In this document: piece by piece, positions 17,378 to 63,059 of the stretch
Numbering within the stretch: position 1 is the stretch's first letter
How the letters are laid out: each line of letters begins with the position of its first letter
From: Escherichia virus TH58
DNA length: 64,000 bases
Direction: 5' to 3' (one strand)
Sequence record: MT446423.1
Notes under the pieces: model-generated
What the model saw: only the letters and a program-made list of their open reading frames with translations
Told to the model about the DNA's origin: nothing
Databases searched by the model: none
Position numbers and translations under genes: made by a program

Positions 17378-17395
17378 ATGGGACTTCGGTCCCAT
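17378..17395 (+). promoter_or_regulatory. UUCG-loop hairpin between regA and gene 43 (terminator and/or gp43 translational operator candidate)
   Basis: ATGGGAC-ttcg-GTCCCAT then TTTGGAGTATAAT; lies about 60 nt upstream of gene 43 ATG. Confidence 0.4.
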
Positions 17396-44020: not shown

Positions 44021-44446
44021 ATGGCTTTTAAAGGTTTTGAAGTTGGTAAGAAATATCGTATTATCAAAGGACAGGAAGATAATTTCTTGAGACTTCTTAA
44101 TACGACTGGTAAACGTCTTAATACTAATCTGCATACTACTTTATTGTCCAAAGATTTTATTGTGGAAAAGATGATTGGTTACGGTGTTTCTGTGATTGCT
44201 GTAGAAGCCGTAGGCGATTATGGCCGAACTATTCATAGTATGCAAGGTGATATTCTGCTTTATGGTGCAGAATTTAAATTCTTTGAAGAAGTTCCGGAAC
44301 CAGATACAGCTGTCGATTTCAAAAAAGGCTCTGTAGAATTTGTTGATGGTTCGGTGATCGTATCAGGTGATGTGGTCATTACAGTTAAAAGTGAACAAGG
44401 GCGTTTGGCTGCAATTGATGCACTTCAGAAAATTAAATTTAAATAA
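44021..44446 (+). CDS. hypothetical protein (141 aa)
   Basis: Track ORF. Confidence 0.5.
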   Translation: MAFKGFEVGKKYRIIKGQEDNFLRLLNTTGKRLNTNLHTTLLSKDFIVEKMIGYGVSVIAVEAVGDYGRTIHSMQGDILLYGAEFKFFEEVPEPDTAVDFKKGSVEFVDGSVIVSGDVVITVKSEQGRLAAIDALQKIKFK

Positions 44447-44468
44447 GGGCTTCGGCCCTTTTTGCTTT
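44445..44468 (+). terminator. rho-independent terminator
   Basis: GGGC-ttcg-GCCC followed by TTTTTGCTTT. Confidence 0.7.
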
Positions 44469-50971: not shown

Positions 50972-50994
50972 GGGGACTTCGGTCCCCTTTTTTT
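50972..50994 (+). terminator. rho-independent terminator
   Basis: GGGGAC-ttcg-GTCCCC followed by seven T. Confidence 0.85.
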
Positions 50995-53295: not shown

Positions 53296-53435
53296 TGATT
53301 AAGAAAATCTTAGCAGGAGCCTTCGGGCTCTTGTTGTTGCTTATGGTTCTGTACTATGGTGTGATGTTTGGACTAATCCAAGTAGTGCTTTTCATTTCAG
53401 ATGTTATAATGACTATTCGTTCATTAATATGGTGA
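53295..53435 (+). CDS. small membrane protein (46 aa)
   Basis: ORF read by eye; TAATG overlap with previous small ORF; hydrophobic. Confidence 0.35.
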   Translation: MIKKILAGAFGLLLLLMVLYYGVMFGLIQVVLFISDVIMTIRSLIW

Positions 53436-54841: not shown

Positions 54842-54861
54842 GGGAGCTTCGGCTCCCTTTT
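54842..54861 (+). terminator. rho-independent terminator
   Basis: GGGAGC-ttcg-GCTCCC followed by TTTTGTGCATTTTTTT. Confidence 0.8.
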
Positions 54862-57736: not shown

Positions 57737-58009
57737 ATGAATAAAGATATTGAAATCGTGCGTGAAATTATTACTATTGCTTCTATTTTGATTAAATTCT
57801 CTAGGGAAGATATTGTTGAAGACCGAGCAAGTTTCATCGGATTCTTGAATGAGATTGGAATTAAAAAAGATGGTCGGCAGCTAAATCAGAATTCGTTCAG
57901 AAAACTAATTACAAATTTAACTGCCGAAGAAAAGAAAACACTGATTAGTGAATTCAATGAAGGTTTTGAAAATATTTATCGTCATTTAGCGATGTATTCT
58001 AACAACTAA
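57737..58009 (+). CDS. asiA: anti-sigma70 factor AsiA
   Basis: 90 aa; ..VREIITIASILIKFSREDIVE.RA.FI.FLNEIG..NQNSFRK..EFNEGFE.IYR matches T4 AsiA as remembered. Confidence 0.92.
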   Translation: MNKDIEIVREIITIASILIKFSREDIVEDRASFIGFLNEIGIKKDGRQLNQNSFRKLITNLTAEEKKTLISEFNEGFENIYRHLAMYSNN

Positions 58010-58669
58010 TTATTTAGCCCTTCCTAGTATTCGGACCGCTTGGTTGCATATAGCCGCTAAGCGATCCTCCTCAAGTATATTACTCCCCTTATACCAATAC
58101 ATCGTCACAGTTCCAGCATAGATGTTATCCAAATTAAAGTATGGGCAACTATACATATAAGAAAGTTCGGCAGTCTTAGATTTTGTAGGCAAAAATGCAA
58201 ATTCTGATTTAGATGAGAAATGACGGCCACTTAAATGAATTATATATTCATTAGCCGTTTTATCCACCGGGAATCCGCCAAGGGACTTTTCAGAAATTGT
58301 GCTAGGTAGTTTGCCTTCATAAGCTATAAGGTCGACGAAATAATTTAAGTTTTTAGGTCTGAAAGAATACACAGCACTAAAATCTGCACCAGATGAGATA
58401 TGAACTATTTGCAGTTGTTCTAGAGCCGCAGATTCAAAACGTAAAGCTCGTTCTTTTTGGATTACTTCAGTATAAGTATCATACTTAGCTCTTACATAAT
58501 AATCCAGCAAAATACTTCCTTTGTACCATATTAGTGCCATTAGGAACAAAAGAATAATTACCGCTACTCGGGATATTAAGACTTTCCCAGTAGCGTTATC
58601 TTTGAAAATACGATCTAGCAACCCAAATAGAATATCACTAGGCGAAAATGATACTTTTGGTGTTGCCAT
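58010..58669 (-). CDS. t: holin T (lysis inhibition holin)
   Basis: 219 aa; single N-terminal TM segment plus large periplasmic domain; matches T4 T as remembered; GAGGAGG SD. Confidence 0.92.
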   Translation of the reverse strand: MATPKVSFSPSDILFGLLDRIFKDNATGKVLISRVAVIILLFLMALIWYKGSILLDYYVRAKYDTYTEVIQKERALRFESAALEQLQIVHISSGADFSAVYSFRPKNLNYFVDLIAYEGKLPSTISEKSLGGFPVDKTANEYIIHLSGRHFSSKSEFAFLPTKSKTAELSYMYSCPYFNLDNIYAGTVTMYWYKGSNILEEDRLAAICNQAVRILGRAK

Positions 58670-58678
58670 AATACCTCC

Positions 58679-59230
58679 TCACTTAAAGATATTTATAATC
58701 GCTTTAATAATAGATTTGTTTTCAAGGTCAGGGAATTTAGGGAACTCGCCGCCAAGATGCTTGTGTTTTTCTAAAAGGGCAAAGAATTTTTTGAGCTCTT
58801 TAAATTTTTGTTTTTCTTCTCTATTAGCAACCTCAGCATCAATAAGAGAACTTAAAACACTGAATAATTTATAGAGTTCACGAATTTTCTTATCGCGTTG
58901 AACTGTGCGCTTATACACTTCATCTTCCTTCCATCCGTTGCCTGTCCAAAGGTCAAATTCACCCGGTTCTTCTGTGGTGACATTTTGAAGAGGGCCCAGA
59001 GTGTCAATAACAATTTTTTGCTTATCATAAGTCCATACTGTTTTTCCACGATGGTCTTCGATGTATTCCCAGTCCTTTTCACGTTCATTAAAAATAACAG
59101 CGTATCCATCTTTAGGTTCTAAAGGTGGTATTTCCGAGGAGTGTGCCGGTAATCCTAATCCCGGGATTACCGTATGGTCGGTTTCTTTATAAAATTCAAA
59201 TGTGTCATAATAATAGTGATAAATTTTCAT
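58679..59230 (-). CDS. 38: long tail fibre assembly/adhesin protein gp38
   Basis: 183 aa; MKIYHYYYDTFEFYKE..GLGLPAHS..EPGEFD.WT..GWKEDE..FFALLEKH.HLGGEFP matches T4 gp38 as remembered. Confidence 0.9.
   Translation of the reverse strand: MKIYHYYYDTFEFYKETDHTVIPGLGLPAHSSEIPPLEPKDGYAVIFNEREKDWEYIEDHRGKTVWTYDKQKIVIDTLGPLQNVTTEEPGEFDLWTGNGWKEDEVYKRTVQRDKKIRELYKLFSVLSSLIDAEVANREEKQKFKELKKFFALLEKHKHLGGEFPKFPDLENKSIIKAIINIFK
58690..58697 (-). promoter_or_regulatory. late promoter TATAAATA for holin t
   Basis: TATAAATA on - strand about 20 nt upstream of t ATG, inside the 3' end of gene 38. Confidence 0.5.
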
Positions 59231-59256
59231 AATTAAAGGGGCTAACGCCCCTCTCC
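59231..59256 (-). promoter_or_regulatory. hairpin-interrupted ribosome binding site of gene 38
   Basis: mRNA reads UAA-GGAGA-GGGGC-guua-GCCCC-UUUAAUU-AUG: SD about 22 nt from AUG with an intervening 5-bp stem-loop. Confidence 0.55.
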
Positions 59257-62200
59257 TTAGGCTAAGCGAACGATATAGTTAAAAGCAATGTTTTTAACAG
59301 TGTTTTCGGTGTTACCGGTGCTGTTAACAGTAATTGTATGGCCATGAGCAGCAATAGAAAACGTGTGAGTATGTGAACCTATAGCCACTGTATGGTTATG
59401 TGTACCGATATCAGTATAGTGACTATGTTCTGGAGCGACTGATGTAGTACCTGACCACGTGTGTGAGTGTAGACCATCCTCGTTAGTCCATGTCGTTGCT
59501 GTCTGACCGGAACTGGATGCTGCAAATCTACCGGACTGAACGTTAGCGTTGTTACCAAGTGAAGCAGTGTGTGCGTGCCTACCGTCAGTACTCGTTGTAC
59601 CGGATACTGTATGAGTATGTGCACCAGCGGTGTTAGTATGTTTACGGCCTAGATCTGTTGTACTAACAGTTTTAGTCCCTAAATCAGTAGCGCTTGTAGT
59701 ACCAGACAAAGCAGTAGTGGATGCAGAAGCAATATGGGTATGGGACTTAATACCATCAGCTTCAGCACTCAACACTGCGCGACCGCTCGGTTTACCCTTA
59801 ATAGTCTGCCCTCGCATATCAGGAATTACGCCACTAGGATACGCAACAGCTAGCTTTGGATATGCAGACTTATCAAAGGTCTGGCCTTCCATTAAAGCAA
59901 ATCCGGCTGGAACTGAATCACTCGGCCATGGAATCGGAGCACCGACCGGATAAGGTATCTGGGCATCAGAATACATCATATACACTTGTCCGAGTATATG
60001 GCCTGCAGGTAATTCTTCTACTGGTGTTTGGGCGCCGCTGTTAATCCCAACAACTGACACGGTGGAGTTGGCTGAGCACTCATATTCAACCACCAACGAG
60101 TTTGCATAGGCCCCAACATATACATAAACATCATACACATCACCGGAGGTATTCATGGTAGCAATATTAGTGAAACCCTTATCGGTACGAGACCATAAAG
60201 TAGCGTTAATGGCTTTAGGATTATTATTGCCTGTACGAAGAACAATTTCTGTAATAGTAGCTTGTTCCGGAGAATTGGCATTAAATCCACTACCACCCAT
60301 TACTTTAAAGCTTGCAGTCCCTACAGATTGTGGAATATTTACTGTAGCAAATTTATACCATCCAGCGCTTGCGCCTGCGGCACTCCAACCACCCGTATTA
60401 ACCTTACGGTCTAAAGTGGTGTTCAAGTTAGAAAAGTTACCAGTACCGCCAGTAATATTACCATCAGTTCCTAATTTAGTATTTCCTATTTTAAGAGGCT
60501 TAGTAATATCGACAGTATCAGAGTTTAATGCAATACCATGGGCGTAGGTGTAATTATGCATACGAACAATGTTTCCACCATCACCAATACCTACATACCA
60601 TTTTGTAACATCTGCTTTGCGTCCTTGGATGAAGTTAGAAGACTCTTGTGTTGGAGCATTTATTCTAATAGCATCGGCGGCAGTATTAACTGTTATACGC
60701 TGAGATGCTGTAGTACCTGATGTATCTACTTTAAACTTGCCCGCACCAATATCAACAACGTGATTCATAGAAACTGCGCCGGTGCCTAACTCAATACTAA
60801 ACGGGCGAAGGTTGTTTATTTCACCATTTTCCCCTTCATTTTCGTTAGTTGGGATAATATGTAATGATGTTTCTGAGCGTCGGAAAATGGCACCATAACG
60901 AGAGTTCCAAATTCTTAATGCATTGATGATGCCACCGATTTTAACTGGTCCATTTGCAGTTAAATTGTTGGTAAGTAAATTACCAAATGTCACAGTTTGA
61001 CCTTCACCGACGCCAAGGTTATTACGGGCAGCAGCTACAGAAGTCGCTCCAGTACCACCTAAATTAATCGGTTGAACACCAGATACAACTTCCTGCCATG
61101 CAGTCCACGATCCGCCTTGTCCGTAGCGAACATATACGCCTAAAGCATTACCGCTCTTTGTAGTAAAGGTCTGCTTACATGACCAGTCGCTATCGGAAAC
61201 TTTACGCAAAGACAGAACTTCGAGAACAAAGTTTCCATCAGAGGTAGGTTTGTTCAATATATTAGAACCACCACCAGAAGATGTACATTTATACAGCTTA
61301 CGAGTACCTAAATCTGAACGTCTAATAATCAGGCTATTAAGGTCAATAGTCTGGTCAGTAATATCAACTGCTTCTTCAACACCACGGTAAGTTTGCTTAA
61401 AAACTAAATCACCTTCTACTTCAAGACCGTTAGGTTTAATTAGAATATACTTACTAGGAGATGGAGTAACAACTGTAGGTTGATAACCAAATTGCACGTG
61501 TCCTTCAGGAGTAATTTTAAGCATTGCTACACCAGCGCCATCTCCAATTTTACGAGCAAGAGTTAATCTGCTATACTTATCAGATTCCTCTGAACCTAAA
61601 TCAACAAACGTTCCGTTGGTGTTTTCGACTTTTAAGTTAGCGTTAATAGTCAAGTTACCGGTCATGGTATCGCCGGTTTTACTTACTTTCTTATTATCAC
61701 CAGCAACAATGTCATTTTTAATAGAAGTCAAATAGTTGTTAAGGTTACCACCAAACAATGAACCTGACGTAATGTTACCGTCTTTGGTTAGCATCGCAGC
61801 CCCGCCGATTTTAACTGCTACAGGAACCTCAAATTGGCCATCAGAGCGGAAACTGTACTCGCCGGCAGAAACACCACCTGTGGTTTTTGCCCGAATACGT
61901 ACAGTGCCTAGGTCTGAGGTGTTTGGAGTAGCCCAAATCACACCACGTTCTATACCATTGTTATTTTCAAACCAAACATGTGTATTCGCATCGACATCTG
62001 GAGCACGAGCATAATAAGAACCAGACCGAGCATAATAAGTTGTTGCAATTATAGCGGCTCCAGAATTAATACCGCCCGTGGTATTAATACCAGCTAGAGT
62101 CTGAACATACGCACCATTTAATGTTAATTTACCGTTGATAGTCACATCACCATCGACTTGCCCACCTTTAGCGAAGCCAAGGTCGATAATTTGACCTGCA

Positions 62201-62328
62201 TCATCTTTAGTAAAAATTGTTCTATCTTTTAAGTTTATAGCCAATTCACCTTCGGCTAATACTGAAGCAGCAGGACGTGCACCTGCGGTTTTGCTTCTTT
62301 TAAATTGTATTTGTTTTAAAGTAGCCAT
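59257..62328 (-). CDS. 37: long tail fibre distal subunit gp37 (receptor-binding)
   Basis: 1023 aa; C-terminal HxH repeat region (HTHTVSG, HAHTAS, HSHTWSG, HNHTV, HTHTFS, HGHTI) and terminal NYIVRLA. Confidence 0.92.
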
Positions 62329-63035: not shown

Positions 63036-63059
63036 AAAAATGGGAGACCGAAGTCTCCC
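63036..63059 (-). terminator. rho-independent terminator after gene 35
   Basis: On - strand GGGAGAC-uucg-GUCUCCC followed by AUUUUUG. Confidence 0.7.

Follow-up and report, generated by a model that had tools for sequence, protein, structure and literature searches.

A probable split ribosome binding site with a GUUA-loop hairpin at the gene 37/38 junction of a Mosigvirus-like T-even phage

In the 64-kb stretch of phage DNA analyzed here (64,000 nt, hereafter the window), which comes from a Mosigvirus-like T-even phage, the gap between genes 37 and 38 probably contains an ortholog of the split ribosome binding site known from T4 gene 38. An effect of this site on the translation of gene 38 is suggested by analogy with the T4 literature. 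While split sites of this type are already known, the allele found here, in which a GUUA loop is carried by a complete stem of five G-C or C-G pairs, is new. The junction combines an SD that is distant from the start codon (22 nt, i.e., more than about 15 nt), no alternative SD, an interposed stable stem-loop and orthology to the T4 junction.

Both genes are encoded on the minus strand. Gene 37 (59257..62328) encodes the distal long tail fibre subunit of 1023 aa and was identified from the ORF list and its Pfam domains gp37_trimer and Collar; gene 38 (58679..59230, AUG at 59230-59228) encodes a T4-type tail fibre assembly chaperone of 183 aa with the Pfam domain Caudo_TAP. The next ORF matched T holin and the one upstream matched Phage_T4_gp36. 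The UAA stop codon of gene 37 (59259-59257) provides the first three bases of an extended SD element, UAAGGAG (59253..59259, with the core GGAG at 59256-59253), which is followed, again on the minus strand, by a single A (59252), the core hairpin GGGGC-GUUA-GCCCC (59238..59251; 5' arm 59251-59247, loop 59246-59243, 3' arm 59242-59238) and the U/A-rich spacer UUUAAUU (59231..59237), which is free of SD sequences and at the same time forms a weak U tail like that of a terminator. The 26-nt gap from the gene 37 stop to the gene 38 AUG is thus GGAG-A-GGGGC-GUUA-GCCCC-UUUAAUU on the minus strand. A preliminary description of this DNA had given the same mRNA sequence, exact letter for letter and with the strand unstated. 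It had also placed the SD about 22 nt from the start codon, and 22 nt were counted between the last G of GGAG and the A of AUG. Its proposal that the stem-loop would restore normal spacing holds as geometry, since removal of the 14-nt hairpin leaves 8 nt, and the likeness that it saw to the initiation region of T4 gene 38 was borne out by the T4 junction, which is orthologous and has equal gap and spacing lengths (26 and 22 nt).

No other SD-like sequence was found in the gene 38 spacer in a scan for SD cores 4-12 nt upstream of the AUG. An earlier in-frame start was excluded, as the first ATG, GTG or TTG after the stop codon in the ORF list is the AUG at 59230. Support for a function on the plus strand was not found either: the hairpin GGGGC-UAAC-GCCCC on that strand has no T-run after it and the overlapping ORFs are only short and unsupported. 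A search of positions 58000-60500 with Rfam covariance models gave zero matches at E-values up to 10.

In T4 gene 38, a structure between the SD and the AUG has been described to cut their spacing from 22 nt to 5 nt (PMC3014915), and sites of this kind have been termed "noncontiguous or split" ribosome binding sites (PMC7297116, citing Gold 1988 for the T4 gene 38 region). A positive effect of the structure at T4 gene 38 "was suggested" (PMC7297116), and it has been stated, in general terms, that mutations destabilising the intervening sequence reduce initiation (PMC3014915). The T4 junction reads UAA GGAG A GGGGC UUCG GCCC UUCUAAAU AUG, with a gap of 26 nt and an SD-to-AUG distance of 22 nt, and resembles the window in its position, in both of these lengths, in the UAAGGAGA prefix, the GGGGC 5' arm, the C-G closing pair, the 4-nt loop and the U/A-rich 7-nt tail. 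It differs in the loop, which is the extra-stable UUCG in T4 and GUUA in the window, and in the 3' arm, which is GCCC-U with a basal G-U pair in T4 but GCCCC in the window, where all five pairs are G-C or C-G. In the T4 record (AF158101.6, locus 343-368), GCCC-U in place of the GCCCC of most relatives results in a gap of 26 nt rather than 27 nt. The GUUA loop departs from the UUCG of the extra-stable C(UUCG)G tetraloop and keeps its C-G closing pair; a GNRA loop does not fit either, because the third base is U.

A second split site in T4 is that of gene 25, where 27 nt are brought to 11 nt according to reporter and DMS-probing evidence (PMC3014915, citing Nivinskas 1999 and Malys and Nivinskas 2009). 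There, as at gene 38, a stable stem-loop lies between SD and AUG and brings them to a functional spacing (PMC3014915), and the layout is reported to be found in close T-even phages and absent in distant ones (Malys and Nivinskas, as cited in PMC3014915), which is likewise the case for gene 38. By comparison, the gene 25 site is at the 26/25 junction, outside this window.

Structure prediction gave the five core stem pairs probabilities of 0.999-1.0 in both 190-nt and 390-nt contexts, and an energy of -10.0 kcal/mol for the isolated hairpin. The MFE structure was longer, an 8-bp helix (AGAGGGGC/GCCCCUUU) that incorporates the "AG" of GGAG and ends 4 nt short of the AUG, so that the 5-bp stem represents the securely predicted part of the helix and not all of it. 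In this possible extended helix (59235..59254, minus strand), AGA (59254-59252) is paired with UUU (59237-59235) in the MFE structures. The fold of the 55-nt region had a z-score of only -2.0, with 8 out of 200 shuffled sequences folding equally well, so that energy alone is modest evidence and the case is carried by position and conservation. Two hairpins with an all-GC 5-bp stem and a 4-nt loop were observed in the 64 kb, compared to 0.07 expected from first-order Markov simulations, and the count of hairpins with 4 or more G-C pairs in the window was eight versus 1.4 expected. Of all the ORFs of 60 aa or more that begin with ATG on either strand of the 64 kb, only gene 38 showed the order SD-hairpin-AUG without a canonical SD.

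Further analysis of related phages showed that a 121-nt stretch over the junction has 81-88% identity to T4, VR7 and other T-even-type phages, about 210 phage records in all. The comparison below is based on about 25 sampled GenBank phage regions out of these approximately 210 matching records, together with loci from IMG/VR and metagenomes; the IMG/VR, metagenome and genome collections contributed 1-3 gp38 loci apiece, or none. Seventeen distinct gene 37/38 gaps were obtained, 15 of which, from Tequatrovirus, Mosigvirus, Gaprivervirus and Dhakavirus, are of the split type, with the layout UAA-GGAG-A(A)-stem-loop-stem-U/A spacer-AUG. UAAGGAG was invariant in 15/15 split-type relatives. In the alignment of the 17 distinct junctions, stem pair 4 was GC in 9, AU in 6 and CG in 2, and unpaired in none. 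Three of the other core pairs were invariant and the pair at the base of the stem was G-C in 16 junctions and G-U in T4, leaving one of the five core pairs as covarying. Overall, 95.6% of the cells were paired, versus 33-78% when the partner was slid by 1-3 columns; as the 17 junction sequences are related to one another, the shuffle control overstates the significance. Judged from this alignment, the stem appears to have been maintained in evolution through compensatory change.

The loop was 4 nt long in all junctions; its sequence was UUCG in most, UUCU or UUAU in others, and GUUA in this window only. The fact that the loop sequence varies while the stem is kept suggests selection on the stem and on loop length, rather than on the UUCG sequence. 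None of the 50,697 phage records shared a 28-nt word with the 45 nt around the window hairpin, and the 19-mer GGAGAGGGGCGTTAGCCCC was absent from IMG/VR. In all 15 split-type junctions, the pyrimidines that follow the core stem are able to pair with the purine stretch GGAGA(A), covering 1-4 bases of the SD. The AUG is always 3-6 nt away from the helix extended in this way, even though the length of the gap ranges from 26 to 31 nt; for comparison, the spacing between the canonical SD of Moon and CkP1 and the AUG is 5 nt. The window, with 8 bp in the extended helix and 4 nt from there to the AUG, agrees with the reduction from 22 nt to 5 nt described for T4 (PMC3014915).

The N-terminus of the gene 38 product, MKIYHY, is conserved, and the protein as a whole has 84% aa identity to that of AV117 and 59% to T4 gp38. 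The rIIA gene of the window is 98.6% identical to that of Mosigvirus phages such as FP43, and gene 37 is a mosaic, its best identity being 88%, to Tequatrovirus BCH953P4. At the DNA level gene 38 reaches at most about 86% identity to any record, and the host-range cassette formed by the two genes (59257-62328 and 58679-59230, minus strand) is mosaic relative to the Mosigvirus backbone. An island conserved across genera extends from approximately 60 nt before the end of gene 37, through the junction, to approximately 40 nt into gene 38.

With regard to transcription, a pattern search for the T4-type late promoter TATAAATA identified exact matches on the minus strand at only two places, upstream of gene 36 (63034-63027) and within the 3' end of gene 38 (58697-58690), upstream of the holin gene t, which was assigned by the Pfam match to T holin. 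An own late promoter for gene 38 was searched for and rejected, as there was no exact match and the one-mismatch TATAAATA-like sites were only found in genes 36 and 37. Since the only exact promoter upstream of gene 38 in the 36-37-38 block is that before gene 36, we infer that gene 38 is translated from a 36-37-38 late message. Cleavage of this message by RegB at GGAG was considered as well and is unlikely, because late transcripts have all been reported, in a review, to resist RegB, and secondary structure to protect against it.

The main function of the hairpin might be to attenuate transcription between the cistrons, or to block 3' decay of the late message of genes 36 and 37, with the upstream position of the SD as an accommodation to it. 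Such a role can coexist with a split site and, as a second role of the hairpin, that of a terminator or stabiliser is plausible; as the main function under selection, however, we consider it unlikely. In its favor, the tail UUUAAUU scored 3.01 against a 95th percentile of 2.36 for the genome as a whole (five of the eight bases of UUUAAUUA are U), Mosigvirus relatives with UUUUUAUAAU scored 4.16, and the WFbE185 record annotates its copy of the hairpin as an ARNOLD terminator. Yet the tail scores were low in T4 (1.54), Moon (1.40) and CkP1 (1.73), so that conservation of the hairpin does not extend to the U tract, and a terminator scan of the window did not list the gene 37/38 hairpin. Moreover, with no exact promoter for gene 38 after it, the hairpin cannot be an efficient terminator. 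A role as attenuator or barrier also leaves unexplained why the helix-to-AUG spacing keeps to 3-6 nt while the gap length varies.

The order of elements at other hairpins provides the remaining support for such a role, and also bears on the origin of the layout. Six other GC tetraloop hairpins are found in the window, all of them C(UUCG)G, located just after stop codons and mostly followed by U-rich runs. Five follow the stops of plus-strand genes (17380-17393, 44446-44459, 50973-50986, 53317-53330 and 54843-54856), and the sixth, the 7-bp hairpin GGGAGAC-UUCG-GUCUCCC (63042-63059, minus strand), follows the stop of a gene 35-like ORF at the gene 35/36 junction. Wherever the next start is visible, the SD of the next gene is downstream of these six hairpins. 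The hairpin at 63042-63059 is followed by AUUUUUG, the late promoter, the SD AAGGAG and the start codon of gene 36 (63002); this normal order of stop, hairpin, promoter, SD and AUG contrasts with that at the gene 37/38 junction. The gene 38 hairpin resembles the T4-type intercistronic C(UUCG)G hairpins and intrinsic terminators in its short GC stem, C-G closing pair, tetraloop, position after a stop codon and U-rich tail; it differs in that the SD of gene 38 precedes it, the loop is not UUCG and only three U are consecutive.

At the gene 37/38 junction of the Citrobacter phages Moon (Moonvirus) and CkP1 (Karamvirus), a GGGGC/GGGCC-UUCG hairpin directly follows the gene 37 stop, and a canonical SD, GAGG or GGAG, follows the hairpin, 5 nt before the AUG. 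The presence of this hairpin together with a normal SD suggests that the hairpin is older than the split layout and that it is conserved for some reason besides bridging. Of 121 GGGGCUUCGGCCCC contexts sampled from IMG/VR without selection, 70 had an SD and a start codon after the hairpin and only 3 had GGAG within 8 nt upstream of it. Taken together, the window hairpins, Moon and CkP1, and the IMG/VR sample indicate that the normal order is stop-hairpin-SD-AUG. From these comparisons it is plausible that the gene 38 layout of T-even phages is a rare derived state with the SD on the far side of an older hairpin, i.e., that the hairpin, an intercistronic one of the ordinary kind, is the older element and that the SD moved to its upstream side later, within the T-even clade. 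The split-layout hairpin also occurs before the tail tubular protein gene in T7-like marine contigs, which again favors an attenuator or barrier, as this is the position of the T-phi terminator in T7.

The extension of the helix allows a different reading, which we regard as improbable. The U-run could zip onto the purines of GGAGA, hide the SD and hold the translation of gene 38 below that of gene 37; in the predicted fold of the free RNA, the paired "AG" of GGAG could thus inhibit rather than help. Three pairs (A-U, G-U and A-U, with probabilities of 0.96-0.99, 0.74-0.92 and 0.53-0.55) are added by the extension, and the last two bases of GGAG are mostly paired in both the MFE structure and the ensemble (predicted P unpaired 0.04-0.13). 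The coverage of 1-4 SD bases in 15/15 split-type relatives points in the same direction, as does the function of gp38, a non-structural chaperone in T4 tail fibre assembly, of which less than of gp37 should be needed. The extension is weak, however, with A-U and G-U pairs worth about 3.6 kcal/mol. The predicted duplex with the 16S 3' end has -7.8 kcal/mol for UAAGGAG, -5.2 kcal/mol for GGAG and up to -9.0 kcal/mol for UAAGGAG(A), and a 30S subunit should therefore be able to open the extension, with the GC core kept folded. In addition, as gene 38 has no other SD, a spacing of 22 nt that is not bridged would itself be near non-functional, and destabilising mutations in sites of this class reduce initiation according to a review (PMC3014915).

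Least probable of all is reinitiation, in which ribosomes terminating at the gene 37 UAA would restart 26 nt downstream, with the SD serving only as a tether and the hairpin irrelevant: the stop codon does lie within the SD (UAAGGAG) in every split-type relative, and the lambda and P1-like stf/tfa homologues have TAATG overlaps, the classic layout for coupling, but a gap of 26-31 nt with a very stable hairpin is untypical of coupling, the compensatory change keeps the stem, and coupling would tie the output of gp38 to that of the abundant gp37. The 26-nt gap in the window differs from the TAATG/ATGA type of stop/start overlap seen in translational coupling. The lambda stf/tfa and P1-like junctions are formed by a homologous gene pair, with the same fibre C-terminus (11 residues) followed by a Caudo_TAP chaperone, and differ in having the TAATG overlap in place of an intergenic gap, SD and hairpin. 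These overlaps are located near 215-222 in lambda and near 215-221 in the P1-like phage Ro157c2YLVW (positions in the fetched regions).

Under the split-site reading, gene 38 would be expressed as part of a polycistronic late mRNA that covers genes 36, 37 and 38 and is initiated from the promoter at 63034-63027. The only SD available to it, UAAGGAG, overlaps the gene 37 stop and would hold the 30S subunit 22 nt from the AUG. The GC hairpin, which is predicted to fold with near certainty, would loop out 14-20 nt, such that the SD-held 30S subunit could reach the AUG over an effective distance of about 4-8 nt; the weak A-U/G-U extension into the SD would have to open for the SD:anti-SD pairing. 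The hairpin is probably derived from the common type of intercistronic hairpin found after stop codons in these phages and may still be a partial terminator or 3' decay barrier for the gene 36-37 message, resulting in less gp38 than gp37. Partial attenuation or a decay barrier would fit a situation in which less of the chaperone gp38 is needed than of the structural protein gp37.

IMG/VR was searched with the pattern UAAGGAGA(N)GGGNC-NNNN-GNCCC. The free stem pair was complementary in 76 out of the 87 matches, compared to about 37% by chance, and the loops among these matches were mostly UUCG or GAAA. A start codon of an ORF of at least 50 aa was found 3-14 nt after the hairpin, with no SD between, in 27/53 distinct UAAGGAGA-preceded contexts versus 15/119 unselected contexts (Fisher p = 2e-7, IMG/VR). 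The genes downstream represent about 10 unrelated families, including podovirus tail tubular protein, head closure protein and a T4-like free-standing endonuclease, with starts 4-13 nt after the hairpin and no intervening SD. The split layout thus recurs outside T4 genes 38 and 25, even though it is rare, at about 1 in 121 unselected IMG/VR hairpins.

Four T4-like IMG/VR contigs of 165-173 kb carry an endonuclease ORF of 136-137 aa (phrog_1111, MKDIANEF...) after UAAGGAGA-GGGCC-UUCG-GGCCC-UUCUGUU-AUG; this represents a second split-type site in T4-like genomes, and phage LF82-41 has the identical stem at its gene 37/38 junction. In one IMG/VR contig and about 25 similar ones, and in three more, all of them marine or metagenomic phage contigs, the layout precedes a tail or tail tubular protein gene (phrog_394/phrog_9239), a head closure gene (phrog_578) or genes with no assigned function, with spacers of 5-13 nt. 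We tentatively propose that the order of stop/SD, GC tetraloop hairpin and AUG could be a recurrent intercistronic module that evolved independently in unrelated phages, arising where a terminator or stabiliser hairpin already exists and the SD of the next gene comes to lie upstream of it. If this is true, a single element would determine the ratio of the transcripts as well as the translation of the downstream gene, and the GUUA allele of the window would add that the loop sequence is dispensable.

The gene 37/38 junction represents a documented type of non-canonical initiation site that can be recognised from raw sequence. The GUUA allele, along with the G-C, A-U and C-G variants of the stem, provides a natural mutant series on the importance of the stem versus that of the UUCG loop. 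Rules based on SD spacing, in turn, can miss or misplace gene 38 starts in T-even phages, for example in NC_041863. In this record (NC_041863.1, E. coli O157 typing phage 3, locus 356-374), the annotated gene 38 ATG is located inside the hairpin, where it is formed from the loop UUAU and the G that follows; this start is probably mis-annotated, and the conserved MKLYHYY start is found 18 nt downstream.
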